A DNA stretch of 64,000 nucleotides from an uncultured Bdellovibrionales bacterium (GTDB lineage: Bacteria > Patescibacteriota > Minisyncoccia > Moranbacterales > GWC2-37-73): positions 7,010-71,009 of the forward strand of contig CAZCMV010000004.1 of assembly GCA_964500125.1 (NCBI GenBank), in the 5' to 3' direction. Every line of letters begins with the position of its first letter. Within the stretch, counting starts at the first letter, position 1. This document shows positions 2,797-38,523 of this stretch, one piece after another. A program made the position numbers and the translations under genes. The notes under the pieces were generated by a model. That model ran no database searches, was not told the DNA's origin, and was given only the letters and a program-made list of their open reading frames with translations.

Positions 2797-2930
2797 TGTC
2801 ATTCTGAGCGAGTGCCGAACTTTCCCAGTTCGGCACGAAGTGAAAAATCCCGTAATAAGCATACGAGTTACCCGAGATCCTTCATTGCACTCCTCCGACA
2901 TATGTCGAAGCTCGCTTGCTCAGGATGACA
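2797..2930. mobile_element. MITE-like palindromic element, copy 1 (terminal inverted repeats TGTCATTCTGAGC...GCTCAGGATGACA; internal perfect hairpin GCCGAACT-TTCCC-AGTTCGGC)
   Basis: 134-bp intergenic element. Its ends are reverse complements of each other and match the ends of the copy at 8181-8255. Both copies share an internal CGAGATCCT. Confidence 0.55.
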
Positions 2931-2935
2931 AATAC

Positions 2936-2966
2936 AAAAAGAGCAGGCTCATCGCCCGCTCTTTAT
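2936..2966 (-). terminator. Hairpin terminator downstream of the 3031-4167 gene
   Basis: AAGAGCAGG-CTCATCG-CCCGCTCTT flanked by A/T runs. Confidence 0.5.
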
Positions 2967-3030: not shown

Positions 3031-4167
3031 TTATTTTTTCACTACCCTTGATCTACCTTTTGAAACCTGTGCAATGGTACGCGTGCGAGAAGAACGTTTT
3101 ACAGGTTCAAGTTCGACAGCATTTAGCTTTTCATTTTGTTGATCTGTTTTTCGTTGTTGTTTCCTCAGTAAAAACGATTTGATGATTGCCCTGATAATCC
3201 AGAAAATAATCAGGAAGAAAAGAATAAGTACAATTAAAACTGGAATCAAGCGCACTACAATCACAATCAGTGCACCAACTAATTTTTGCATATCTTTTAA
3301 CATGCTGGCAAACTCTGTCTTTGCCACTTGCCAAGGCCTCCATGATGTCGCAGTTCCTACAGTAACATCCTCGGAAATATTAGCCGTGATCGTTGACATT
3401 TCAACCTGCGAAGAAAGATATCTCATTTGTCCTTCCATAGCTTCAATTTCTCCTCGCACCCGCGAAATTTCTTGAGTCACCGCAAGAACATCACTAATCT
3501 TTCCACTAGTATTATTCAAAATTTCTTGGAATGATTCCTCTTCAGCTTTCTTGTTACGAAGACGAGCCTCTAAATCAACAAACTGGGCGGTCACATCATT
3601 CGCATTAATAGATTCGCTTTTCACCAAAGTAGCAATCTTTTTTATTTCTGCAAAAGCCACGTCGAAATTATTAAACGGGACTTTCACACTGATTGAACCA
3701 CTTTTCATGTTTTGTGCTCCTTTGCGGAAATTTGTCGATTGCACTTCTCCACCAAGTCTCTTTGCAATATCTGAAATTTCTTGCGCGGCAACATCGGCAT
3801 TTTCAACTTGCGCGGTCATGTATCCATTCTTGATTATCTTCTGCTCGACGGGTGCCACTTCTCCAACAACACTGTTTTGTATTGAAACAGGCACACTTTC
3901 CCTAGAGATTCCTTTTGCAGTATTGGACCTGGTCATATCCATACTTTCCCCTACCGAAGACATCGGAGTGATTTCCATTCCTGCATCAGAAAAAGAACCT
4001 TTCAACCCAAGAATTGTTGCATTTTTATTATAGGTCGCCACACGAAAACCAACTAGAAGTATGACCATCAGCACGATTGCAATGATTGCAATCACCCCAA
4101 TTTTGAGGATTTTTTTGGCAGTTTCCATTTTCTTTTTGTTATTTTTTATAAGAAATAGCTTACGCAT
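3031..4167 (-). CDS. Membrane-anchored extracytoplasmic coiled-coil protein (DUF4349-like architecture: N-terminal TM, about 250-aa domain, C-terminal TM helices)
   Basis: 378-aa ORF. N-terminal TM (IGVIAIIAIVLMVILLVGF). C-terminal hydrophobic stretch (LVGALIVIVVRLIPVLIVLILFFLIIFWII) followed by a basic tail. Confidence 0.45.
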   Translation of the reverse strand: MRKLFLIKNNKKKMETAKKILKIGVIAIIAIVLMVILLVGFRVATYNKNATILGLKGSFSDAGMEITPMSSVGESMDMTRSNTAKGISRESVPVSIQNSVVGEVAPVEQKIIKNGYMTAQVENADVAAQEISDIAKRLGGEVQSTNFRKGAQNMKSGSISVKVPFNNFDVAFAEIKKIATLVKSESINANDVTAQFVDLEARLRNKKAEEESFQEILNNTSGKISDVLAVTQEISRVRGEIEAMEGQMRYLSSQVEMSTITANISEDVTVGTATSWRPWQVAKTEFASMLKDMQKLVGALIVIVVRLIPVLIVLILFFLIIFWIIRAIIKSFLLRKQQRKTDQQNEKLNAVELEPVKRSSRTRTIAQVSKGRSRVVKK

Positions 4168-6051: not shown

Positions 6052-6207
6052 AAATATTGCTTTAAAATCCTAATGTCAAAATCCTAATGTCAAAATCCTA
6101 ATTTCCAATAAATGACTCGATGACCAAATTCTATTTTTAGATATTTTGATTTAGTATTTTATTTGATATTAGTCATTAGGATTTAGAATTTGCGAAGTTA
6201 AAAAATC
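6052..6207. repeat. Intercistronic palindromic repeat element (AAATCCTAATGTCAAA x3 ... GTCATTAGGATTT), atpD-atpC spacer
   Basis: Three tandem copies of AAATCCTAATGTCAAA, with the inverted partner TAGTCATTAGGATTTAGAATTT about 90 nt later. Confidence 0.7.
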
Positions 6208-7740
<1,533 letters not shown>

Positions 7741-7813
7741 CAAGCTTTTTGTTTCATCCACGATTCAACTAAGCTATAAACAGAATCAGAATCTCGAACA
7801 TACTATAGCGGTC

Positions 7814-7842
7814 TTGACTTTTTTATGATTTGGGTGTATAAT
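7814..7842 (+). promoter_or_regulatory. Near-consensus sigma70 promoter on the plus strand (TTGACT, 17-nt spacer, TGTATAAT)
   Basis: TTGACT at 7814-7819. Spacer is 17 nt. TATAAT at 7837-7842 is preceded by TG. Confidence 0.65.
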
Positions 7843-7907
7843 TGACAACTTTCCACGCAGTTCCTTTCATGTCATGTCGACTGGCCCAAAACGCAAAGGA
7901 GAAAATC

Positions 7908-8093
7908 ATGATAAAACCAGAGGTTTTAAACATGATGTATTTCGGACTTGGGATTGCAATAATTATTGTGTTTTCCATGATAGCCCTCCAGAAATTACAA
8001 ACTCTAACGGCATTGGAAATGATACTATACTTTCTGGTCATTTTCTTGGCTGGGTCTCTCCTGTTTAATGGTATTTTATTCTTGGTAAAGTAG
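7908..8093 (+). CDS. Small 2-TM membrane protein (61 aa) encoded antisense to the atp operon
   Basis: AAGGAG lies 7 nt upstream of ATG 7908. Sequence MIKPEVLNMMYFGLGIAIIIVFSMIALQKLQTLTALEMILYFLVIFLAGSLLFNGILFLVK. Sits about 65 nt downstream of the promoter above. Confidence 0.5.
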   Translation: MIKPEVLNMMYFGLGIAIIIVFSMIALQKLQTLTALEMILYFLVIFLAGSLLFNGILFLVK

Positions 8094-8180
8094 TTTCTTT
8101 GCCAACAAGCGGCACAACGTCCCATTCCGGCAACACTGGAATTGGGGCGTTTTTTATTTTTCAAAAGAACCTCTTCTCTT

Positions 8181-8255
8181 TGTCATTCCGAACTTGTTTC
8201 GGAATCTAGAGGAGCATGCAACCCTTCGAGATCCTGAAACAAGCTCAGAATGACA
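8181..8255. mobile_element. MITE-like palindromic element, copy 2 (TGTCATTCCGAAC...GCTCAGAATGACA; internal hairpin ATTCCGAA-CTTG-TTTCGGAAT)
   Basis: The reverse complement of its 3' end (TGTCATTCTGAGC) is identical to the 5' end of copy 1 at 2797. Shared internal CGAGATCCT. Confidence 0.55.
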
Positions 8256-8372
8256 CATTATTATCTTTTCATTTTACATTGTCATTTTGCTCCGCCAATT
8301 GGCGGATTGATTTTTGCATTTTGCATTCATAAATTCGAGTCATTCGAGTGCCCATTCGTAAATTAGAGTCGC

Positions 8373-9329
8373 CTATTCGAGCGCCGCCGATCCTGCACTT
8401 ATCTCCGCAATCTCCTGCGTAATCTTTCCTTGACGAATCTGGTTATACATCAGTGTGAGATCTGCGGACATTTCCGTTGCTGCGTCTGTTGCATTTCTCA
8501 TAGCCATCATGCGCGCGCTTTCTTCAGATGCTTTTGATTCCAAAATCGCATGAAACAATTGCATCTCAATAAGGCGTGGAATAATAAATTCCAAAACTGC
8601 TTCCGGACTTGGCTCAACTTTATATTCAACTTTCGGTTCGTCCAATCCATATTCTTTCGCAAGCACATCCATTTCTGCAATTTGCTTTTCAATATCAACC
8701 TTTGATATCGGCAAAATCTGACGAATTCTGGTTTGCTGAGTTACTGCACTGATATAATCCGTATACACCACCACTACCTTGTCATATTTCTTTGCCAAAT
8801 ATTCATCAATAACCATTTTGGAAACAGGCTTGATATCTGTAATTGAAGCAAACTGCGCGCCATCGGCAAATGCAGCGATTATTTCCTTTTTCATCTTGCG
8901 CACCATCCCTTCGCCTTTCTTACCAATCGTAATAAAATCAATCTTAAGATCCGTTGCGCAAGTCTTGGTCTCAACCTTTTTCTTGCCAATGCGGTTAATC
9001 AGAAGCTTTTTTGGATCAGTAATTTCTTCGCGCAGTTTTTTGAAAATTTGCGTGTTAAATGAGCCGCAAAGTCCCCTATCGGACGCAACCACCACGATAA
9101 GCACACTACACACCGGACGTACTGCCAGTAATCCTTCCTGCGCATTTTCAAACGCGCGTGCAAGATTAGTCAGCACGCTCCAAGCACTGTGAGCATAAGG
9201 GCGCACACCCAAAACGCTCGCCACACTCCGGCGCATCTTAGCAGCTGAAACCATCTCCATTGCTTTGGTGATTTTGCGAGTACTATTTACAGATTTTATT
9301 CGACGACGAATGTCTTTACCTGATGCCAT
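8373..9329 (-). CDS. atpG: F1 ATP synthase gamma subunit
   Basis: 318 aa. MASGKDIRRRIKSVNSTRKITKAMEMVSAAKMRR N-terminus; C-terminal helix ends ...AALE. Confidence 0.9.
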   Translation of the reverse strand: MASGKDIRRRIKSVNSTRKITKAMEMVSAAKMRRSVASVLGVRPYAHSAWSVLTNLARAFENAQEGLLAVRPVCSVLIVVVASDRGLCGSFNTQIFKKLREEITDPKKLLINRIGKKKVETKTCATDLKIDFITIGKKGEGMVRKMKKEIIAAFADGAQFASITDIKPVSKMVIDEYLAKKYDKVVVVYTDYISAVTQQTRIRQILPISKVDIEKQIAEMDVLAKEYGLDEPKVEYKVEPSPEAVLEFIIPRLIEMQLFHAILESKASEESARMMAMRNATDAATEMSADLTLMYNQIRQGKITQEIAEISAGSAALE

Positions 9330-9448
9330 AATTTTTTTTAAATCCTAAATCTAAAATCTAAATATCAAATAAAATCCTAAGTCTCAAATTCCAATTTGTC
9401 ATTTCGTCACTAGACATTTATTAGGCATTAGTCATTAGGATTTTGGTT
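9330..9448. repeat. Intercistronic palindromic repeat element (AAATCCTAA family)
   Basis: TAAATCCTAAATCTAAAATCTAAAT ... TAGTCATTAGGATTTTGG. Confidence 0.65.
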
Positions 9449-10951
9449 TTATCCCTGATATACTTCTTTAAATTCTTTAATTGCTTTTTCCAATGCAGCA
9501 ATCACTTCATCCGTAAGTGCTTTTTGCTCAGTGATGAGTGTGAGCACATCTTTTGCCTGCGAGTCGAGATACTTATGGAAATCATTTTCCCACTGCTTGA
9601 TTTTTTCTATTTCCACATCATCCATGAAACCATTAGTCAGAGCATAGAGAACTGCTACTTGGTGCTCAACTGCCATCGGTTCATATTGTCCTTGTTTAAG
9701 CACTTCCATCGTGCAACGTCCGCGTTCGATTTGAATGCGCGTCTTTTCATCAAGGTCAGATCCAAATTGTGCAAACGCTTCCAATTCACGGAATTGCGCC
9801 AATTCCAATTTGAGTTTTCCGGCAACTTTTTTCATTGCTTTGATTTGCGCATCTCCTCCCACGCGCGACACGGAAATACCCACATTCAAAGCCGGACGCA
9901 CACCTTTATAGAAAAGATCCGTTTCCAAGAAAATCTGTCCGTCAGTAATCGAAATCACATTGGTCGGAATATATGCCGAAACATCACCAGCTTGCGTTTC
10001 AATGATTGGCAACGCAGTCATCGAACCACCACCAAAATCTTCATTGAGTTTTGCACTGCGTTCCAAAAGACGAGAGTGCAAATAGAACACATCTCCAGGA
10101 TATGCTTCGCGTCCTGGTGGGCGCTTCAAAATCAAGGAAATCTGGCGGTATGCCCAAGCATGACGTGAAAGATCATCGAACACAATCAAAACGTCTTCAC
10201 CTTTATCCATGAAATATTCACCCAGTGCACAACCAGAATAAGGAGCAATATAGGAAAGCGCTGCAGAGTCTGAAGCTCCAGCAACAACAATTGTTGTATA
10301 TTCCATCGCGCCGTTCTTTTCCAGTTCACCCAAAATTCTGGCAATTTTGGATTCTTTCTGTCCAACAGCAACATAGATACATTTCATGTTCTGCCCTTTC
10401 TGGTTGATAATCGTATCGATCGCCACAGCAGTCTTACCCGTCTGACGGTCGCCGATAATCAGTTCGCGCTGTCCGCGACCGATCGGAATCAAAGCATCGA
10501 TAGCCTTAATACCAGTCTGTACCGGCTGATGCACCGATTTACGCGTAATCACACCCGGAGCAATCTTCTCTACTGGATAAAAAGCGTCTGATTTTATATC
10601 ACCCTTACCATCTACTGGTGCTCCAAGCGGATCAATTACACGACCAACCATTCCTTCACCAACTGGAATCGACAAAATCTTTCCTGTAGCCTTAACTTCA
10701 TCACCTTCTTTAATGGAAAGATAATCACCCAAAACCATCGCACCGACACGATCTTCCTCAAGATTGAGCGCCACGCCGATTTGACCGCCTGGAAATTCAA
10801 CCATTTCACTGGCCATAAGATTGCCCAGGCCAGATATTCTGGCTACGCCATCTCCTACCTCAATCACCTTGCCGACTTGCTCGGAAGTTGTTTCAGCCTT
10901 GAAGCCTTCAATCTGTTTTTTCAACTGTTCAATGATGTAGTCTTTGCTCAT
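9449..10951 (-). CDS. atpA: F1 ATP synthase alpha subunit
   Basis: GDRQTGKT Walker A; 500 aa. Confidence 0.95.
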
Positions 10952-11437: not shown

Positions 11438-11555
11438 TATTTTAATTCCTAAATCTAAAATCCTACTGTCTAATAAAATTCAAAATCATAATGTCAAAAA
11501 ATTTGGATTTGGAATTTTAGATTTTATTGGAAATTTGACATTTAGATTTATGATT
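11438..11555. repeat. Intercistronic palindromic repeat element (AAATCCTA family plus TTTGGATTTGGAATTTTAGATTT)
   Basis: AAATCATAATGTCAAA ... TTTGACATTTAGATTT. Confidence 0.65.
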
Positions 11556-12044
11556 TTACCTTAGCATTTTCTCTATGATTTCTTTATCCTTCCCCTCATT
11601 CATTTTCTCATCAATAACTTTTCCCGTCACTGCAATCACTAATTCCGCGACTTGTGTTTTTACTTCGCTTAGCATTTGGTTTTTTTCTAACTCAATCTTC
11701 TTGGCAGCCTCATCCAAAATCTTTTGCGCTTGCTGCTTAGCTTGATCAGCTATTTCATCTTTCGCTTTGCTGGCTGCGGCTTCCGCTTTGGCCACAATTT
11801 CTTGTGCTTGTTTTCTCGCTTCCACCAAAACCGCTTTTTCCTTTTCGGCAATTTCCTGGAGTTTTTTGTGCGAATCCTCCGCATCCTTAAGTCCTTTGTC
11901 AATCTTCTTGGTACGTTCATCCATCATCTTCATTATCGACCCATAAGCGAATTTATATAGCACAAAAAGCACGATGGCAAAATTCACCAATTGCGCAATA
12001 ATCAGTTTCCAATCAATGTGAAATGTTTTTATTAATTCATCCAT
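11556..12044 (-). CDS. atpF: Fo ATP synthase b subunit
   Basis: N-terminal TM then a long charged helix (AEKEKAVLVEARKQAQEIVAKAEAAASKAKDE...). Confidence 0.85.
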   Translation of the reverse strand: MDELIKTFHIDWKLIIAQLVNFAIVLFVLYKFAYGSIMKMMDERTKKIDKGLKDAEDSHKKLQEIAEKEKAVLVEARKQAQEIVAKAEAAASKAKDEIADQAKQQAQKILDEAAKKIELEKNQMLSEVKTQVAELVIAVTGKVIDEKMNEGKDKEIIEKMLR

Positions 12045-12246
12045 AATATTGAAGAAATAAATCCTAAATCTAAAATCCTAATGTCAAATAAAATTCTAAA
12101 TCCTAATGTCGAAATTTTGAACTTTGGATTTGTGACTTTATTGGAAATTTGACATTTAGATTTGGGATTTTTAATGATTGCCTTTTTAATTATTTTAACA
12201 TTCTCACTTCGACTTCTTGCAATAAACAAGAAGCCGTCAGAAGATA
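12045..12246. repeat. Intercistronic palindromic repeat element (AAATCCTAATGTCAAAT ... ATTTGACATTTAGATTT)
   Basis: Two left-arm copies and one inverted right arm; 200-bp spacer between atpE and atpF. Confidence 0.65.
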
Positions 12247-17689: not shown

Positions 17690-18340
17690 CTATTTCTTCT
17701 CTCCTTTGTTTTCACCTTCTTTCACTACTCCTGCAATCTTGGTTACATCTTCTTCAACCTTATTTTCCAAAGATTCCAATTCTTCTTGGGTTCTTGGCGG
17801 AGTAACCAGAGCGATAACAGTTTCCGGTTCAAGATCTATCTTTATCTTATCAGAAACTTTAATATCAGCAATGGTGATGTGGTCGTCGAAAGTTTTGATT
17901 TTAGCAAGATTGATTTCAAAATGAGGTGGAAGATCGGATGGCAGACATCTAACCGGCACTTCATCCATATTCTTTACCAAAACTCCCCCAAGAGCTTTCA
18001 CTGCTTCTGATTCACCAATGAATTCGAGAGGAATTTCTGTTTCCACTTCCTCTTTCATATTCACCTGGAAAAAATCAACATGTGAAATTTTGCCACTCAT
18101 GTGGTCTGTTTGCGCATCGTGAATAAGCACGTTTAATTTCTTTCCCTCCAACTCCAATTCCACTATTGCACTTTCACCAGCATTGGCATAAGCACGCTCC
18201 ATTTCCAAAAGAGGCACGGCAATGTTGCGAGCTGCAATCTTGTTGCCATAGATAACAGCTGGTACAATTTCCTGCTTGCGTAAGTTTTTCACCTTTTTGC
18301 CTGTAATTTCGCGAATAATTGCTTTCAGTTTGATTGTCAT
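17690..18340 (-). CDS. rplY: Ribosomal protein bL25 (Ctc/general-stress form)
   Basis: N-terminus AIIREITGKKVKNLRKQEIVPAVIYG. 216 aa with an acidic C-terminal extension. Confidence 0.85.
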   Translation of the reverse strand: MTIKLKAIIREITGKKVKNLRKQEIVPAVIYGNKIAARNIAVPLLEMERAYANAGESAIVELELEGKKLNVLIHDAQTDHMSGKISHVDFFQVNMKEEVETEIPLEFIGESEAVKALGGVLVKNMDEVPVRCLPSDLPPHFEINLAKIKTFDDHITIADIKVSDKIKIDLEPETVIALVTPPRTQEELESLENKVEEDVTKIAGVVKEGENKGEKK

Positions 18341-18445
18341 ATTTTTAGATATTATTCAAATACTTAAATATACCAACTATTAAGATTGTATTTTAGCCTA
18401 AAAAAAGCCTAAACTATTTCATTAAGCCTAGGCAGTATAACAAAA

Positions 18446-19627
18446 TCAAGCCAAAGAGTCAATGGTATCCATATTTAAATCTTGATATTCAGAAACAATC
18501 ATTTTATCACTACGAATATGAATATTATTAATAATGCCCATAGCAGAGAGAACCACCACGAGAGAACTTCCACCGTAGCTGAGAAAAGGAAGCGGAATAC
18601 CCGTAACGGGCATTAAACCTATATTCATTCCAATATTTTCCAACATTTGAAGAAATATCATAAACAAAACACCTATTGCTAAAAGATATCCGAAATTATC
18701 CGTAGCTTTTTTAGCGATAATCCCAATTCTGTAAAATATAACAAAAAACAAAACCAGCACAGCAATTGAACCGGCAAATCCGAGTTCCTCTGCAATGGCG
18801 GCAAAAATAAAATCTGTATGTTTTTCCGGCAAAAAATTCAATTGCGATTGAGAACCGTGTCCTATTCCTTTCCCCCAAAACCCACCGCTACCAACAGCCA
18901 CTGTTGACTGTATTACATTATATCCACTACCACGCGGATCAGAAGATGGATCTAAAAAAGTATTTATGCGTGCTTTTTGATAGTCAGCCAAATGAAACCA
19001 TCCAATAAAAGCAAGGGATAATATTGCCACAAAGATACCGATAACTACTTTGCGAGAAAGACCAGAAACAAAAAGCATACCTATCCAAATTCCGAAAAGA
19101 ACCATGGCGCTACCAAAATCAGGCTGTTTGAAAACAAGAAACATGATTACACCCATTAGGACAGCGGATATAATCACTCTGCCCAACTCGCCAAACTCGG
19201 ATCTTTTTTGAGAAATAAAGCTAGCCATAAAAATTATCATGACTAATTTGGCCAATTCCACAGGCTGAAAACGAAGGGAGCCAATACCTATCCAACCAGA
19301 TGTGCCTCTTATATTCATCCCAAAAATAAGAACTATTGATAAAACAAAAAGTATAATGAAATACAATGCAGTGCTTTGCTTTTTTAATATCTGATAATTA
19401 CCAAAAGAAAAAAAGAACATTGCAAAAATGCCAAGCAGTGCAAATATAGCCTGTCTCCAAAATATTGATAAGTCACCCGTTTGTCCTGTTGAAAGAGAAG
19501 CGCTATATAAAACAGTAAGACTAATCGCGAGCAACAAAAAAACACTGCAAACAAGAATCCAATCTGTCCTAACTAGCTTATTTATCATATAAAAAACATT
19601 TGGAAAAAGGCTTAATAATAATTTCAA
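18446..19627 (-). CDS. ftsW: FtsW/RodA/SpoVE-family peptidoglycan polymerase (SEDS)
   Basis: About 10 TM helices. Motifs QPVELAKL, FKQPDFGSA, NFLPEKHTDFIFA and PLPFLSYGGSS. The annotated start is a TTG overlapping the next gene's stop; the internal ATG (MINKLVRTD, at 19588) is an alternative. Confidence 0.85.
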   Translation of the reverse strand: MKLLLSLFPNVFYMINKLVRTDWILVCSVFLLLAISLTVLYSASLSTGQTGDLSIFWRQAIFALLGIFAMFFFSFGNYQILKKQSTALYFIILFVLSIVLIFGMNIRGTSGWIGIGSLRFQPVELAKLVMIIFMASFISQKRSEFGELGRVIISAVLMGVIMFLVFKQPDFGSAMVLFGIWIGMLFVSGLSRKVVIGIFVAILSLAFIGWFHLADYQKARINTFLDPSSDPRGSGYNVIQSTVAVGSGGFWGKGIGHGSQSQLNFLPEKHTDFIFAAIAEELGFAGSIAVLVLFFVIFYRIGIIAKKATDNFGYLLAIGVLFMIFLQMLENIGMNIGLMPVTGIPLPFLSYGGSSLVVVLSAMGIINNIHIRSDKMIVSEYQDLNMDTIDSLA

Positions 19628-20581: not shown

Positions 20582-20612
20582 AATAAAAAAGAAGGCAAAC
20601 AATGTTGCCTTC
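20582..20612 (-). terminator. Intrinsic terminator of the CAP-domain gene
   Basis: Minus strand reads GAAGGCAAC-ATTGTT-TGCCTTC followed by TTTTTTATTT. Confidence 0.7.
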
Positions 20613-20830
20613 TGCAGAATTTTGTCCTTCCAAGAGGACCAAGACATGGACTCATGCCTTTGATTTAATAAAGAATTTTTAATCCTTTTTTGTGATTATT
20701 TTTTATTTAAAGAACAATGACTATTCAAAATCAATAAATTCAAACATAATTAATCCCGACAAAATACGAATAATCTATAAACATAGCCTCACATTCGTAT
20801 TCTTGTAAAAATATCCTTGACTTGCTGGTA

Positions 20831-21595
20831 TTACACCATGATTCCCTCTTCCTGTCTTTTTTTGAAAGCAATCAAAACATCGGCAACTATCGCAATAAAA
20901 AATGCTAACATCGTCAAAAACGTAGCGACGTATCCCGCAAACGTACGGTCAGATGAAACATTTATCGTTGTTTTTTCAGGCTGCAGAGAAAGTACCTGCC
21001 TTGTATTTTCTGACTGATTAACAACCTCCACTGATTTTACTTCACTTATTTCAAGTTGTTGTCTTTTATTAGTTGCAGCTACCGCAGCAGAACCATCGGC
21101 CAATTTTCCGAACATTTGCACTACAATCAAAGAATCATGACCATCTATTTTAGCTACTGCCATAGCGACACCAATATCTTCATATTTTGGGTTTAAGATA
21201 TTTTTGCGATGAGTTGGACTGTTCATCCAAGCTTTTTCTTGATCCTCGGCATTTTTATAGTTAATTGCAAGATTCTCACCAGCATACAAATAATTGTAGC
21301 CTGCACTGTCGAACCAGTGCCATGGTTCAATGCCTTTTGGCGAAGTATGAGCAAAATAACCATTATCTACCATATCAGCAACTTTTTTTTGAGCAGCTTC
21401 AGTCAAAACATCATTTTCTTGCAACAAGGGAATGTCTTGTTCGGCCCTATCCTTATTTGCCAAGTCAATAACCAAACTTGATGTTATTTGGCTTGCCATA
21501 GCCTTGCTGGCTGCAATTTGCATCAAAAACACCGCCAACAAGGCAAAAAAAGTGATTCTTACAAATTTATTAGCTTTTTGTTTTTTTAGAGGCAT
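20831..21595 (-). CDS. CAP/SCP/PR-1 domain protein (YkwD-like) with signal peptide and C-terminal TM anchor
   Basis: GYFAHTSPKGIEPWHWF...GENLA...AWMNSPTHRKNIL...YEDIGVA matches CAP-domain motifs. C-terminal TM FAGYVATFLTMLAFFIAIV. Confidence 0.75.
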   Translation of the reverse strand: MPLKKQKANKFVRITFFALLAVFLMQIAASKAMASQITSSLVIDLANKDRAEQDIPLLQENDVLTEAAQKKVADMVDNGYFAHTSPKGIEPWHWFDSAGYNYLYAGENLAINYKNAEDQEKAWMNSPTHRKNILNPKYEDIGVAMAVAKIDGHDSLIVVQMFGKLADGSAAVAATNKRQQLEISEVKSVEVVNQSENTRQVLSLQPEKTTINVSSDRTFAGYVATFLTMLAFFIAIVADVLIAFKKRQEEGIMV

Positions 21596-31476: not shown

Positions 31477-32505
31477 CTATAATATTTCTTTTATTATACT
31501 TTCATATTTGCCTATCTCCAAAAGCATCATTACCATCTCAGCGAGTTTGTGGCTGTCGTGACGAATAAAAGCACGCTTGTCTGCAAGAGAATCGCTTATG
31601 CTGAAAACCGGTTTTTTTCCACTCAAAATATCCCCGCGAATCACTCTATATTTACGCTCTTTGCGAACCGAATGATCAAATTCAATCAATAACTCTTTTT
31701 TGCTTTCATATTTTTCAATCAGATTTTTACCGGGTTTTTTGGAGTTGAAAGTGACAAAATCAATTCTTTTTTTACCAATAAAAGAATTTATGGAATCAAC
31801 ATAATCATCAAGGGTAAAGTGATCCGTATGTCCCGGTTTATTTACCAAGTTGCAATTATATACTACAGTGGCTTTTGATTTTTGGATGGCTTGAGAAATA
31901 CCCTTTACTAAAAAATTAGGCACAATCGAACAAAAATGATTTCCCGGACCAATAACTACCAGATCTGCTTCCGCAATTCTTTTGAGAGCTTTCGGATTAG
32001 CTTTCACATTTGGCGAGAAATACATCTTTTCTATGCCATGTTTCTGAATTGAAAAATTATGATTAATTTCATTCTCCCCCTTCAATATTTTTCCGTTTTT
32101 CATTTCCAAAAAAAGATGCGCATGATCATTGGTAACTGGAATCACTTCGCCCTTAACATTCAAAATTTTACTAACCTCTTCTACGCCATCATTAAAATTG
32201 CCTTTTATTTTTTCCAAGGCCGACAACAAGAGATTGCCAAATGAATGACCCTTAAGAGAACCGCTCTCGAAACGATAATTAAGAAGCTCACGAAGGACTT
32301 CAGAAGATTCACTTAGTGCTACCAAACATTGACGCACATCTCCTGGAGGAAGCACGCCAAGTTCGTCGCGAAGCACACCGGTTGAACCTCCATCATCAGC
32401 CATTGAAACAATCGCCGAAATGTCTACCGGATATTTTTTAAGACCAGAGAGCAAAGTAAAGCTTCCCGTCCCCCCGCCGATTGTAACTATTCGCTTTCTC
32501 TTCAT
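31477..32505 (-). CDS. yvcK: YvcK/CofD-family protein (UPF0052, gluconeogenesis-factor-like)
   Basis: IVTIGGGTGSFTLLSGL ... VSMADDGGSTG. Confidence 0.8.
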   Translation of the reverse strand: MKRKRIVTIGGGTGSFTLLSGLKKYPVDISAIVSMADDGGSTGVLRDELGVLPPGDVRQCLVALSESSEVLRELLNYRFESGSLKGHSFGNLLLSALEKIKGNFNDGVEEVSKILNVKGEVIPVTNDHAHLFLEMKNGKILKGENEINHNFSIQKHGIEKMYFSPNVKANPKALKRIAEADLVVIGPGNHFCSIVPNFLVKGISQAIQKSKATVVYNCNLVNKPGHTDHFTLDDYVDSINSFIGKKRIDFVTFNSKKPGKNLIEKYESKKELLIEFDHSVRKERKYRVIRGDILSGKKPVFSISDSLADKRAFIRHDSHKLAEMVMMLLEIGKYESIIKEIL

Positions 32506-32619
32506 ATAATCATGTAATCATACAAGCATACAATCATATAAACATGAAACCCGTGTTTGAATGTTTAAACGCTTACACGTCTGTGATTTGTATGTTTAAA
32601 TGTTTGAATGTTTGAATGT

Positions 32620-33300
32620 TTAAATGAATTTATGTATCGCCTCCTCTGCTTTCCCTAGGTCATCAGGATTGCCGATTGGATGCCAATCATGCGCTTTGAG
32701 AATTTTGATTTTCTCATCCTGCGCCATCTGTACCAATGTTTGCGGCAAACCAAATTCAGTTTCACTCACCCTCACCAAGGGATAATCAAAAAAATGTTTA
32801 CTCAAAACGTACGCCCCGATATTAGCGAGTCCCGGCCCGCCCTCCTTGGGCTTTTCGATTATATCAACCAAATGGTGCTGTTCGTCGATTTTAAAAACTC
32901 CAAATCTGCTGCAATCCTCAACATGGATGGCTAAAATAGAAAAAGGAAATTCAATCATCTTTGCCAAATCGTCGCGATAATACAAATCATCACCCATCAG
33001 CACCAAGAATTTTCCTTTGATAACATCCTTGCAACAATGCACCGCCCCACCAGTTCCATTCAACGTGTCTTGCTGCACATATGTTATCTTGCGACCACCA
33101 AATTCAGTGCCGAAATATTTTTTGATGTGCTCACCAAGATAATTCACCACAAAAATAACTTCATCAATTTCCTTGGGCAAAAAGCTCAGAGTGTGCTCCA
33201 AAATGGGCTTTCCCGCCACGGGAAGCATCGGTTTGGGAATGTCATATGTCAAAGGACGCATCCGTGTACCCTTTCCTGCTGCCAAAATTACTGCCTGCAT
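32620..33300 (-). CDS. Sugar-phosphate nucleotidyltransferase
   Basis: N-terminus MQAVILAAGKGTRMRPLTYDIPKPMLPVAGKPIL. Confidence 0.75.
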   Translation of the reverse strand: MQAVILAAGKGTRMRPLTYDIPKPMLPVAGKPILEHTLSFLPKEIDEVIFVVNYLGEHIKKYFGTEFGGRKITYVQQDTLNGTGGAVHCCKDVIKGKFLVLMGDDLYYRDDLAKMIEFPFSILAIHVEDCSRFGVFKIDEQHHLVDIIEKPKEGGPGLANIGAYVLSKHFFDYPLVRVSETEFGLPQTLVQMAQDEKIKILKAHDWHPIGNPDDLGKAEEAIHKFI

Positions 33301-33690: not shown

Positions 33691-33741
33691 CACAATTTTA
33701 TTTGTATGTTTATGTGCTTGAATGTTTAAATGCTTGAATGT

Positions 33742-36282
33742 TTAAATGACGATATTAATAAGTTTCCCGGGAACAAAAATGATTTTCTTGATTTCCTTTC
33801 CTTCGGTAAACGCTTTTATTTTTTCACTTTCCAATGCGGTTTCTTTTATTTCATCTTCCGTCACATCAGCGGCAACGATCAAACGATCACGCACTTTGCC
33901 GTTTACCTGCACAACCATCTCAACCTCTTCGTCTTTGGCCAATTCCGGATCATATTTGGGCCACTCGGACAAAAATATGCTTTCTTTGTTTCCCAGCTTT
34001 TCATTCAATTCTTCCGCAATATGTGGAGCAAAGGGAGCAAGTAATATAATCAACTGCTGGTAATCAGCAACTAGTATTTCCTTTTCTTTTTCCATTGCGT
34101 TTACCAAAATCATCAACGAGCTAATCGCCGTATTAAACCTGAAATTCTCAATATCCTCCGTAACTTTTTTAATGGTCTTATGTAACAAGGAAGAAATTTT
34201 ATTGTTCATTACCCCTTGTTCACTAATCATTGATTGCAATTTCCAAACCTTCTCCAAAAATCGATAAACCCCACTCACACTGTTAGTACTCCAAGCCACA
34301 CTCTGTGTAAATGGACCCATAAACATCTCATAAATCCTCATTGCGTCCGCGCCAAATTCAGCAATCACATCATCCGGGTTCACCACATTATTCCAGCGCT
34401 TACTCATCTTGCGCCCATCCTCAGCCATAATCAAACCAACATGAACCAATTTCTTGAAAGGTTCAGTAGTAGAAACCACACCGATATCATACAAAAATTT
34501 ATGCCAAAAACGCGCATACAAAAGATGTCTTGTTGCATGCTCAGCTCCACCAACATAAAGATCAACTGGCATCCACTTTTTTTCCTTCTCTTTATCAATC
34601 AGCGCGTTGTCATTTTTTGGATCGATATAACGCAGATAATACCAAGATGACCCCGCCCATTGAGGCATAGTGTTCGTCTCGCGTTTAGCTGATCCACCGC
34701 ATGTCGGACATGTTGTATTTACCCATTCTTCAATTGTCGCCAAGGGACCCTCGCCTGTTCCTGTCGGCTCATAATGTTCAACTTCAGGTAACAATACAGG
34801 CAAGTCTTTTTCCGGTACACCAACTGCACCACATTTTTCACAGTGGACGATCGGTATCGGCTCGCCCCAATATCGCTGGCGGGAAAATACCCAGTCACGC
34901 ATCTTGTAATTCACTTTTCGCTTTCCAATTCCTTCTTTCTCCAGCCACTCGCTCATTTTCTCCCGGGCATATTCAGAATCAAAACCTGTATATTCACCAG
35001 ATTCTACCAAATTTCCTTCAGATACAGAGCATTTTTCTCCAGAAATAATACTATTAAAAAACTTTTCCTCATCCTTCATAAATTGTTCTGAATCTGGAAT
35101 TCCCGAGGATTTAATTTCATACATTTCTGGCATAATTACACATTTCACGCCCAGATTATATTTTTTGGCGAATTCAAAATCACGCTCATCATGTGCCGGC
35201 ACCGCCATCACCGCACCGGTTCCATAGCCACCAATGACATAATCAGCAACAAACAAAGGCACGGCTTCATTATTAAAAGGATTTATAACTTCAATACCCT
35301 CAATTCTCACGCCTGTTTTTTCTTTCTGCAAATCAGTTCTTTCCAAAGCGGTCTTGTTTTGTGCCACAATTACATATTTTTCAACTTCCGCATAATTTTT
35401 TATCTTATCTTTGATTTTTTCAATAATCTCATGTTCCGGCGCAACCACCGCATACGTCATACCAAAAACCGTATCCAAACGCGTAGTATAGACCTCTATA
35501 TACATATCATCTTGAGCGTTAGCGACAGATCCCATATTATTTCGTGATTCTTCACTCAGCTCCGCTCCGTTCAGAATGACGCTAAGTTTGAATTGCGCAC
35601 CCTCTGAGCGTCCAATCCAGTTTTTCTGTTGGTCGATTATGGAATTCTCCCAATCCAAGTCACTGCTGTCCAAATCATAAAGCAACCGATCGGCATAATC
35701 AGTCATTTTCAAAACCCATTGGCGCATTTTTTTCTGCACCACCTGAGAACCACAACGCTCGCAAAGCCCTTTTTCCAAATCCTCATTAGCTAAAACCGTT
35801 TTACAAGAAGGGCACCAATTTACCGGCTCGTTTGATTCATATGCCAAACCTTTTTCAAAAAGCTTCAGAAAAATCCATTGGGTCCATTTATAATAGTCCG
35901 GGTCAATGGTATTGATTTCTCTGTCCCAATCATAATTAAAGCCAAACATTTCAAGCTGTTTCTTAAATCTCTTCACGTGTTCCCTTACGAATACATCCGG
36001 ATTGACCTTGTTTTTAATAGCATAATTCTCCGCCGGCAGTCCAAACGCATCCCATCCCATAGGATGAAGTACGCTATATCCTTGTAACATTTTCATACGT
36101 GAAACCACGTCGGTAGCAATATACCCTTTTGGATGACCAACATGAATACCGGAACCGGAAATATATGGGAACATATCGAGCGCGTAAAATTTCTTTTCGT
36201 GCGAATAATCTTTATACAGTCTGCTATCTTCCCACTTCTTCTGCCACTTTTTTTCTATTTTAGATGGTTCGTATTTTTCCAT
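33742..36282 (-). CDS. leuS: Leucyl-tRNA synthetase
   Basis: 846 aa. N-terminus KWQKKWEDSRLYK...FYALDMFPYISGSGIHVGHPKGY. KMSKR. Confidence 0.95.
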   Translation of the reverse strand: MEKYEPSKIEKKWQKKWEDSRLYKDYSHEKKFYALDMFPYISGSGIHVGHPKGYIATDVVSRMKMLQGYSVLHPMGWDAFGLPAENYAIKNKVNPDVFVREHVKRFKKQLEMFGFNYDWDREINTIDPDYYKWTQWIFLKLFEKGLAYESNEPVNWCPSCKTVLANEDLEKGLCERCGSQVVQKKMRQWVLKMTDYADRLLYDLDSSDLDWENSIIDQQKNWIGRSEGAQFKLSVILNGAELSEESRNNMGSVANAQDDMYIEVYTTRLDTVFGMTYAVVAPEHEIIEKIKDKIKNYAEVEKYVIVAQNKTALERTDLQKEKTGVRIEGIEVINPFNNEAVPLFVADYVIGGYGTGAVMAVPAHDERDFEFAKKYNLGVKCVIMPEMYEIKSSGIPDSEQFMKDEEKFFNSIISGEKCSVSEGNLVESGEYTGFDSEYAREKMSEWLEKEGIGKRKVNYKMRDWVFSRQRYWGEPIPIVHCEKCGAVGVPEKDLPVLLPEVEHYEPTGTGEGPLATIEEWVNTTCPTCGGSAKRETNTMPQWAGSSWYYLRYIDPKNDNALIDKEKEKKWMPVDLYVGGAEHATRHLLYARFWHKFLYDIGVVSTTEPFKKLVHVGLIMAEDGRKMSKRWNNVVNPDDVIAEFGADAMRIYEMFMGPFTQSVAWSTNSVSGVYRFLEKVWKLQSMISEQGVMNNKISSLLHKTIKKVTEDIENFRFNTAISSLMILVNAMEKEKEILVADYQQLIILLAPFAPHIAEELNEKLGNKESIFLSEWPKYDPELAKDEEVEMVVQVNGKVRDRLIVAADVTEDEIKETALESEKIKAFTEGKEIKKIIFVPGKLINIVI

Positions 36283-37191: not shown

Positions 37192-37308
37192 AATGAATCA
37201 TCTTAACATACAATCATTTAAACATATAAATACACTAAAACACAAGCACTTTAAGATATTTAAATGCCTACATGTTTAAATGTTTATATGTTTTAATGTT
37301 TTTATGAT

Positions 37309-38523
37309 CTACTTGTACCTCAGTGCATCCAAAGGATCAATTTTGCTGGCACGCCGAGCAGGAGCAAGACCGGTAAACAAACCCACAACCGCAGAAAAAG
37401 CTATGATAGCAAGCACGAACCAAAGAGGGCTATAGAAAAGAGTAACTTCTTCGCCACCGAAACGAGCAGCTACAAAATTAATCAACCAATTAAATACAAC
37501 TCCTCCCAGGTAGCCCATCAAAACACCAGCAAGACCACCCAGAAAACCCATTATTGCAGACTCCATGAAAAACATTATTGAGATACTCCCATCAGAAGCT
37601 CCAATTGATTTCATGATACCGATTTCTTCCGTGCGCTCTAGAAGTGCAATAGTCATCGTATTAAACATACCAATCGCCGAAACAATTAAAGCAATGATAC
37701 CAAAAAGCATTAAGATCAATTGAACGATACTAAAAATCTTGTTTGCTTGATCAACAGTATCTGAAAGCGAAGACACTAAAAGTCCCTCATTTATTATGGC
37801 GTCACGAATAACTGACATTTCCTGATTAGAATCACATTTTACCTTCACTTGCGAATATCTTTCTATGTTTAAATCGCTAAGAGATTTTGAATTCACATAA
37901 ACTACATTTTCTTCACTGCTTACCATCCCTATTATCTTATATGAATTTTTACTATCAATTCGTTCGTATTCAGCTTGAGATTCACTTTCACCTTCGGAAG
38001 ATCCTCTTTCCTTGGGTACAAAGAAAGAAAAAGTCATTTCTTTGCCAATCATTTCTTCATCATTTTTGCCAAAAACCTGAGCTATGGCGCTACTAACAAC
38101 TATGCCATTCGTAACATCATCAGATAGAAGTTCTCCCTGCGTAGCCTTGAATCCACCAAGCTTTAAATATGATGGTTTAGATACGAAAGAAACCAGATCG
38201 GCTGATAAATCGTCAAGGTGACCTTGTGCAGTCAATTGAAATGCTGGACTTACTTCAGAAACACCCTCCATTTGTTGCAATTTATCTATCCTTTCGTTAT
38301 TAAGCATTATAACGCCAGACTTTGCTTCAGTAATATCAAGAGTAAGTAGCGAATCAGAAGTAGTAATTCTCTCTAATAGCGTTTTCTGCAAACCATATCC
38401 CAAAGACACCAAAAACAATATGGCTCCAATACCAATACTCATACCAAGAATGGTTAGAAGCGTACGCGAGGTTCGCGCCTTAAACATTCTGGTTGATAGT
38501 CTAAATAAATCAACAAATTTCAT
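37309..38523 (-). CDS. ABC transporter permease, FtsX/MacB/LolCE family
   Basis: N-terminal TM, large periplasmic loop, C-terminal 3-TM bundle. Adjacent to the ABC ATPase. Confidence 0.8.
   Translation of the reverse strand: MKFVDLFRLSTRMFKARTSRTLLTILGMSIGIGAILFLVSLGYGLQKTLLERITTSDSLLTLDITEAKSGVIMLNNERIDKLQQMEGVSEVSPAFQLTAQGHLDDLSADLVSFVSKPSYLKLGGFKATQGELLSDDVTNGIVVSSAIAQVFGKNDEEMIGKEMTFSFFVPKERGSSEGESESQAEYERIDSKNSYKIIGMVSSEENVVYVNSKSLSDLNIERYSQVKVKCDSNQEMSVIRDAIINEGLLVSSLSDTVDQANKIFSIVQLILMLFGIIALIVSAIGMFNTMTIALLERTEEIGIMKSIGASDGSISIMFFMESAIMGFLGGLAGVLMGYLGGVVFNWLINFVAARFGGEEVTLFYSPLWFVLAIIAFSAVVGLFTGLAPARRASKIDPLDALRYK

Follow-up and report, generated by a model that had tools for sequence, protein, structure and literature searches.

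The superfamily of CGTC-tagged repetitive extragenic palindromic (REP) sequences was defined by Di Nocera et al. (2013, PMC3733652). Its units carry a CGTC tag, which is often TGTC, followed by an 8-9-bp stem starting with A-T pairs, a 4-5-nt loop and a short tail, and they are mostly arranged as dimers. These repeats were described in five phyla, including dRS3 in Neisseria and RPE-4 and RPE-6 in Rickettsia, and they have no dedicated transposase (PMC3733652). In Neisseria, the 28-nt repeat NTS (CGTCATTCCCGCGMAVGCGGGAATCYRG) is the target of SsnA, a 94-aa single-domain GIY-YIG nuclease which binds NTS solely as single-stranded DNA (ssDNA), on one strand, and cuts a few nucleotides upstream of it (Chenal et al. 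2025, PMC11893778). Cutting requires the GTC that precedes the palindrome, binding the C that follows it, and no RNA binding by SsnA was found (PMC11893778). Ssn homologues are widespread and flanked by 'Ssn-related motifs' (SRM), and the NTS-ssnA-NTS arrangement was likened by the authors to an insertion sequence (PMC11893778). Here, we analysed a 64-kb stretch of contig CAZCMV010000004.1 (64,000 nucleotides, hereafter the window) from a bacterium of the candidate phyla radiation (CPR), whose best matches for LeuRS (leucyl-tRNA synthetase) and AtpG carry the name Candidatus Moranbacteria. The window holds two repeat elements, e1 and e2, and a decayed third copy, e3 (Table 1). Very probably, all three are inverted dimers, without an open reading frame (ORF), of a tagged hairpin repeat of the CGTC/TGTC-REP, that is, NTS/SRM, kind which is associated with Ssn nucleases, and these dimers are probably mobile or relict selfish DNA. 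A first-pass annotation of the window had described e1 and e2 as non-autonomous elements resembling MITEs (transposable elements of miniature size with inverted repeats), or alternatively as a structured small RNA family.

The positions of e1 and e2 and their common ends (TGTCATYCYGARC...GYTCRGRATGACA), as given in that annotation, were borne out by our analysis. The 134-nt e1 begins with TGTCATTCTGAGC and ends with GCTCAGGATGACA, the 75-nt e2 begins with TGTCATTCCGAAC and ends with GCTCAGAATGACA, and the 13-mer at the 5' end of e1 is identical to the reverse complement of the 3' end of e2. When the 13-mer TGTCATTCYGARC was searched in the window with at most one mismatch, five sites were found against 0.29 +/- 0.5 expected, and none of 100 shuffled sequences reached five. 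Of these sites, four coincide with the ends of the two elements, and the fifth (35569-35581, minus strand) forms the head of e3. On both strands, e1 and e2 folded considerably better than shuffled sequences, with z = -5.9 to -8.8 as RNA and z = -4.0 to -5.6 as DNA. For e1, the fold is a three-way junction closed by a terminal stem (RNA z = -6.3/-7.5), and the values for e2 are z = -5.9/-8.8 as RNA and -4.5/-5.6 as DNA. The internal hairpins that had been noted in both elements are real, and so is their shared core CGAGATCCT, located at 2873-2881 in e1 and 8227-8235 in e2, which corresponds to the inner tail and stem of the right arm.

Table 1 Coordinates of the repeat elements, their arms and the adjoining features in the window.
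Feature	Position	Strand	Description
e1	2797-2930	.	Two tagged hairpin units as an inverted dimer, tags outermost; nested extra hairpin in the loop of each arm
e1 left arm	2797-2852	+	TGTC tag; stem ATTCT...AAAAT (4/5 pairs); loop with nested perfect hairpin 2812-2836 (GTGCCGAACT/AGTTCGGCAC); C-initial tail; compared with canonical arm TGTCATTCTGAACGAAGTGAAGAATCTC
e1 right arm	2873-2930	-	TGTC tag; perfect stem ATCCT...AGGAT; nested hairpin CGACATATGTCG in the loop; tail CTCG
e2	8181-8255	.	Inverted dimer of two tagged hairpin units; can fold whole as one long hairpin
e2 left arm	8181-8209	+	TGTC, ATTCCGAA, CTTGT, TTCGGAAT, CTAG
e2 right arm	8227-8255	-	TGTC, ATTCTGA, GCTTGTT, TCAGGAT, CTCG
e3	35505-35581	-	Decayed third copy; CGTC-tagged left arm and recognisable right arm, in frame in leuS
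Terminator-like hairpin of DUF4349 gene	2938-2964	-	With respect to transcription, directly upstream of e1; kept in the relative without e1
atpG (ATP synthase gamma)	8373-9329	-	PF00231, E 4e-85
atpD (ATP synthase beta)	6208-7578	-	Far side of the gap that holds e2

Compared with the described repeats, the arms have several features in common with them. First, the 5' HGTC tag is present in every copy, as TGTC in all four arms of e1 and e2 and as CGTC in e3. Second, an AT-initial palindrome followed by C is perfect over 8 bp in the left arm of e2 and over 5 bp (ATCCT/AGGAT) in the right arm of e1, with one mismatch each in the left arm of e1 and the right arm of e2. Particularly, the left arm of e2 (TGTCATTCCGAACTTGTTTCGGAATCTAG) has all described features of NTS and CGTC-REP units (tag, AT stem and C after the stem). 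Its perfect 8-bp stem begins with AT, encloses a 5-nt loop and is directly followed by C (dG -6.5, z -3.9), so that it fits the CGTC-REP description exactly, and it agrees with the Neisseria NTS consensus (PMC11893778) at GTCATTCC...GGAATC+YRG. The other arms also fit the CGTC-REP description but have longer loops, and the right arm of e2, with a single T.G mismatch in its stem, is weaker as a hairpin on its own (dG -1.2, z about 0). Two arm types are represented here, since e1 belongs to the 'GAGCG...GAAG' type with nested hairpins in the loops, as found at several other loci, and e2 to the 'GAACTTGTTTC' type. When the window was scanned structurally for further solo units (tag plus a stem of at least 6 bp), 10 matches were obtained against 5.1 +/- 2.5 in shuffled sequences, and the left arm of e2 alone was convincing.

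The search for further copies that had been suggested for these ends yielded e3 within the window and a dispersed family elsewhere. Using a pattern composed of both ends and the shared core, members were found in six viral contigs and in at least 120 contigs of a species-representative genome collection. Among the matches listed, 166 elements from 126 loci all had the architecture TGTC-[ATYCT..loop..AGRAT]-CTC-variable centre-GAG-[ATYCT..loop..AGRAT]-GACA, which is also that of e1. By record title, the hosts of these listed matches fall into more than 15 phyla, including Acidobacteriota, Chloroflexota, Planctomycetota, Verrucomicrobiota, several proteobacterial classes, Bacteroidota, Clostridia, Nitrospirota, Cloacimonadota and Campylobacterota as well as the CPR groups Saccharibacteria and Daviesbacteria. 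For position 7, pairing with its partner in the same arm (C-G, T-A or G-C) was seen in 137 of 144 elements, and the two arms disagreed with each other in 58 of the 144. Within 102 unique arms of canonical length, covarying pairs were 7-23 (CG 75, TA 23, GC 1), 9-21 (TA 93, CG 6) and 12-18 (GC 81, AT 15), and the usual loop was GNA closed by C-G (GCGNAGC type) beside tandem G.A. Because the pairing covaries within arms and not between them, each arm is a hairpin of its own and not one half of a plain terminal inverted repeat (TIR), as the ends had been read before. The repeat unit is about 28 nt or longer and consists of a 5' (T/C)GTC tag, an AT-initial stem, a variable loop in which a nested hairpin is possible, and a C right after the stem.

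These family data also bear on the classical MITE, which would be an insertion sequence of the DDE type reduced by deletion and moved by cut-and-paste in trans via its TIRs. The small size, inverted ends and intergenic position of e1 and e2, and the differences in presence and absence among relatives described below, would suit such an element. However, no target-site duplication (TSD) of 2-9 nt was detected at any offset in 153 family copies, and these copies had no target consensus apart from a slight A deficit at position -1. When the 260 ORFs flanking the 166 elements were clustered, generic SDR and ABC ATPase clusters were obtained only, with no transposase-like family, and the gene that does occur between identical ends encodes a GIY-YIG nuclease of roughly 95 aa. 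Since TSDs and a transposase were not found in these sets and the arms are independent hairpins that disagree with each other in 58 of 144 elements, the reading as a DDE-type MITE can essentially be excluded. Of the earlier proposal of a non-autonomous mobile element, the parts that stand are the membership in a dispersed family with gene-carrying versions and the presence/absence differences, and not the classical MITE. As gene-carrying versions share the ends and copies vary between relatives, 'non-autonomous relative of a protein-coding element' is a fair description of e1 and e2.

The gene-carrying versions were recognised in relatives. In a locus with a syntenic atp operon (L100, 70-73% nucleotide identity to the window), e2-type dimers are present in three atp gaps, and the atpG-atpD gap contains a 98-aa ORF with a GIY-YIG domain (PF01541, E 5.8e-18) between two dimers. 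In a second locus (L056), a homologous GIY-YIG gene is enclosed by one dimer, which belongs to an ATTGC/GCAAT variant. Using these two proteins as queries, 80 loci were returned by a metagenome scan, and a tag-outward hairpin was located at most 200 nt upstream of the gene in 67 of them, at most 220 nt downstream in 65 and on both sides in 59. Hairpin counts per 100 nt were 65-72 adjoining the gene, compared with about 1-5 farther off. In five loci (L135, L138, L142, L143 and L173), moreover, GIY-YIG genes are flanked by an identical copy of the 26-nt left arm of e2. In sum, the motif flanks the Ssn-type gene in L100, in L056 and in 59-67 of the 80 metagenome loci. The L100 protein shares 50% identity (E 3e-32) with a 94-aa ORF of N. 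gonorrhoeae which has canonical NTS on its flanks. This Neisseria orthologue contains Tyr6, Tyr17 and Glu64, which had been mutated in the study of SsnA, and its catalytic Tyr, Tyr and Glu are aligned with those of the L100 protein. Searches of NCBIfam and PDB sequences with the GIY-YIG protein gave weak generic GIY-YIG matches or none. This association emerged only from the gene-side search, not from clustering of the neighbours on the element side. As for the cognate transposase that the first-pass annotation had proposed to look for, none was present among the 260 neighbouring ORFs, and the protein associated with the repeats is a GIY-YIG ssDNA nuclease, not a known transposase.

The locus that carries the 94-aa SsnA orthologue in N. 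gonorrhoeae (L216; NZ_CP119140.1, 1881878-1882941) has NTS repeats with their tags toward the gene. This record is a 2.17-Mb N. gonorrhoeae chromosome listed as 'plasmid' in PLSDB.

The same neighbourhoods can be used to weigh a mechanism of the REPIN/RAYT type, in which a single-copy HUH tyrosine transposase (RAYT/TnpA-REP or IS200/IS605 TnpA; RAYT, REP-associated tyrosine transposase) would mobilise the dimers and the GIY-YIG gene would be no more than a frequent neighbour or a domesticated partner. The layout is the same, with inverted REP hairpins around a spacer, a conserved 5' tetranucleotide tag and no TSD. Many of the species with CGTC-REP units also encode RAYT or IS200 genes, yet none of these genes is flanked by CGTC units (PMC3733652). 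On the other hand, it is the GIY-YIG gene that has the hairpins within 100 nt in the 80-locus set, and no Y1 transposase was found among the 260 neighbouring ORFs. Moreover, RAYTs are lineage-specific and vertically inherited, whereas the arms described here are near-identical over more than 15 phyla among the matches listed. We consider mobilisation by an HUH transposase very unlikely, and an association of the tagged dimers with Ssn-type nucleases is the reading that we prefer.

The comparison with related genomes showed that presence and absence differ among relatives for all three copies. Both e1 and e2 are intergenic, as had been noted. e1 lies between the DUF4349 gene (3031-4167, minus strand) with its terminator on one side and a promoter-like site and the next gene on the other. 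A 'GC-rich cassette' had been placed beside e1 and could not be identified there, the sole GC-rich neighbour being the terminator-like hairpin. e2 starts 118 nt past the stop codon of atpG in the atpG-atpD gap, which is 795 nt long (7579-8372) and which it shares, as annotated before, with an antisense small ORF. In the two nearest relatives found (L208/L212 and L209; AtpG 92% and 89% identical), this gap is 34 nt long and has no element, and in other relatives it ranges from 650 to 1042 nt and is filled differently, among others by an ssn cassette in L100 and L128. At the e1 site of L212, terminator, promoter and ribosome-binding site are all retained, and unrelated sequence lies between them in place of e1. 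A Logan contig of 5279 nt from an independent short-read assembly (L127, SRR8925823) carries an identical atpG and ends about 100 nt past the stop codon, where e2 starts; this break is consistent with a repeat and hints at one.

The third copy, e3, provides a different kind of record. It lies in leuS (33742-36282), where it encodes SVILNGAELSEESRNNMGSVANAQDD and lengthens the protein by about 20 residues (SVILNGAELSEESR...) where the editing domain starts. It is clearly a relic, and its folding is no better than that of shuffled sequences (z -1.0). Among 120 LeuRS homologues, the insert is shared solely by the closest one (P0002), and about 85 have a short 31-residue loop without it. At the DNA level, an empty site is seen in L215 (P0004). 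The same loop holds intact in-frame tagged-hairpin dimers of two other variants in L213 (P0096) and L214 (P0058).

This surface loop of LeuRS is an insertion hot spot in Moranbacteria. In other lineages (LeuRS homologues P0005, P0010-13, P0021, P0023 and others), it contains peptides which resemble other palindromic or AT-rich repeats in translation (INGGSTSIGEVEPP; ISNSDGISNDQ...).

The gain and loss of copies can be set against the possibility that the elements are structures of benefit to the host, acting in cis at the RNA or DNA level (for example, as an mRNA-stabilising or processing hairpin or as an insulator in the atp cluster) and kept by host selection. The REP and BIME (bacterial interspersed mosaic element) sequences of E. 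coli are known for such effects. In the atp sense transcript e2 would form a hairpin of -42 kcal/mol, e1 stands right after a terminator and before a promoter, and the flanks of family members show a mild convergent excess (40 convergent, 24 divergent and 70 tandem). However, e2 is dispensable, because the nearest relatives run from atpG to atpD through 34 nt without any element. Copies are also found in frame in leuS, the flank orientation is near random, no Rfam family covers the elements and Ssn binds no RNA. Selection for a host function is thus an unlikely explanation for these elements, and a structural effect, such as one at the RNA level for e2 in the atp transcript, may exist as a side effect of the Ssn-associated dimers, with which it is compatible. 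A role as terminators, judged by flank orientation, was dropped since the convergent excess is mild only.

The alternative of a structured small RNA family in the first-pass annotation received no support either. When the whole window was searched against Rfam 15 at the gathering score, one tRNA only was found, and scans around each element with E up to 10 returned generic hairpin (miRNA-like) matches far below threshold. In the single biochemical study of the partner protein, it is also reported to be without RNA binding (PMC11893778). Other candidates, namely integron attC sites, hammerhead and twister ribozymes, C/D-box-like k-turns and the omega-RNA ends of IS200/IS605 elements, were dropped as unfit by Rfam or by sequence. 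A literature search with sequence strings and translations gave unrelated primer matches only.

Based on the published properties of SsnA and the architecture described here, a possible mechanism can be outlined. When the DNA becomes single-stranded during replication, transformation, repair or cruciform extrusion, each arm would fold as its own hairpin, and an Ssn-family single-domain GIY-YIG nuclease would bind this hairpin on the tag strand only and nick it a short way (a few nucleotides) 5' of the tag. Where a dimer has its tags outward, the recognition strands would be opposite and the nicks are predicted just outside both ends of the element; such nicks on opposite strands would suit excision or copying. 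In relatives, the gene-carrying forms are arranged as arm-ssn-arm or dimer-ssn-dimer. The copies in the window are gene-less and would be either non-autonomous passengers, served by an ssn gene at another place in the genome, or relics. On this model, Ssn would move or copy the elements, the host genome would encode an Ssn, and e1 and e2 would still be substrates, and binding and cleavage of these arms solely as ssDNA by the cognate Ssn are predicted.

Several points weigh against this reading. To our knowledge, mobilisation of DNA by Ssn has never been demonstrated in any experiment. In the 64-kb window, no ssn or other GIY-YIG gene was found by tblastn. With the published SRM string HGTCWYN(0-2)YYVSBRHN(0-5)WNVSBRGN(0-2)RNCYNB, no match was obtained in any of the four arms of e1 and e2 or elsewhere in the window, whereas the NTS control matches. 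The same string also misses the canonical high-GC arm, and the flanks match it in 11 of the 80 Ssn-type loci. Therefore, among the NTS/SRM and CGTC-REP repeats, e1 and e2 were classed as a sequence variant and not as strict SRM. The tags point toward the gene in Neisseria and outward in most metagenome loci, so the cutting geometry is not uniform and the model of nicks just outside the element is not general. Because of the stem mismatches in the left arm of e1, the right arm of e2 and all of e3, these arms may no longer be recognised. Finally, the differences in the e1 and e2 gaps are not clean empty sites, and the exact insertion junctions are therefore undefined.

At eight loci (L028, L080, L092, L093, L122, L140, L152 and L161), whole units have incomplete extra copies of the 13-nt head (TGTCATCCTGAGC or the like) stacked upstream at 18-23 nt, at times two or three in series. 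These stacked heads could be footprints of repeated cutting and repair.

A broader proposal, which we put forward tentatively and regard as possible but doubtful, is that a separate class of mobile DNA is made up of the gene-less dimers together with the relatives that carry ssn. Its mobilising enzyme would be the GIY-YIG ssDNA nuclease of about 95 aa, which would cut right outside a pair of tagged hairpins that face outward, its insertion would produce no TSD, and it would have spread horizontally over more than 15 phyla including CPR, with in-frame insertion in essential genes; the form TGTCATYCTGAGC... would be the dominant environmental one, missed by the SRM motif. If this is true, the GIY-YIG nuclease would be the 'missing transposase' of the CGTC-REP superfamily. 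The gain and loss evidence (34-nt vs 795-nt gap, and three independent in-frame insertions in the LeuRS loop) bears on the mobility of Ssn-flanked cassettes. The copies in the window add an example from Moranbacteria, within CPR, to a pair of repeat and nuclease that was already described. Since the SRM string misses this variant and the variant occurs in very many phyla of the public-genome sample scanned, current censuses probably undercount the repeats. For assembly and annotation, contig breaks, spurious small ORFs and peptides of the 'VILSEAKDL/CHPERSEGS' type in real proteins are to be expected.

Other features were observed around these copies. The antisense small ORF in the atpG-atpD gap (7874-8068, plus strand) encodes 64 aa without a Pfam match, has a near-consensus promoter-like site at 7814-7842 (11 of 12 matches), and is followed at about 8108-8160 by a hairpin with a T-run which was read by eye and is not listed by the terminator scan. 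A second, unrelated repeat family consists of AT-rich palindromic blocks with a period of roughly 8 nt (AAATCCTAAATCTAAAATC... / AATGTTTGAATGTTTA...). These blocks occupy nearly all intergenic gaps of the atp operon (6073-6191, 7620-7737, 9334-9450, 11443-11556 and 12058-12170) and are also present in other gaps (32500-32642, 33692-33756 and 37196-37314), and a related copy is found at 773-891 of L100. In L212, the contig of the nearest relative, two genes of the 23S_rRNA_IVP (four-helix-bundle) kind and one of the PDDEXK_3 kind are present (1107-1658, 18301-18705 and 20610-20996). 23S_rRNA_IVP and PDDEXK_3 genes are small genes of a kind often scattered among housekeeping genes.

The Rickettsia palindromic elements (RPE) of Ogata et al. 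(2000) are said to lie in frame in protein genes. Like them, the repeats described here can be found as palindromes in frame in a surface loop of an essential protein, namely the LeuRS loop in e3, L213 and L214. Unlike here, RPE belong to another host phylum, and RPE-4 and RPE-6 are of the CGTC type according to PMC3733652, a likeness taken from their description. The REPINs and their RAYTs (Bertels and Rainey 2011) resemble the present system in several ways, since an inverted pair of REP hairpins with a spacer forms a larger hairpin, the elements are non-autonomous without TSD, and they are tied to one small nuclease-type gene flanked by the same repeats. They differ in their GTAG tag, their HUH tyrosine transposase, and their vertical and lineage-specific distribution, compared with the near-identical arms across phyla here. 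The CGTC-REP superfamily is closer, having the same tag, stems, tail and inverted dimers, a distribution over several phyla, occasional intragenic copies and no RAYT attached. In contrast, the loops in many arms of the present family are long and contain nested hairpins or GCGNAGC mini-hairpins with tandem G.A on their flanks, and its range among the matches listed is more than 15 phyla, CPR included, vs the five phyla of the earlier paper. The NTS/SRM-SsnA system shares with the present repeats the (C/T)GTC tag, a hairpin starting with AT(T/C)C, GRATC and a short tail after the stem, dispersed copies (hundreds), and the same arms beside single-domain GIY-YIG genes of about 94-98 aa. The stem and loop are GAACTTGTTTC or GAGCGNAGCGAAG here and CCGCGMAVGCGG there, and the published SRM string misses the arms of e1 and e2 because these stem and loop sequences differ. 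Whereas the tags face ssnA in Neisseria, the copies described here, three of which were seen in the 64-kb window, are gene-less inverted dimers with the tags outward in a CPR (Moranbacteria) host.

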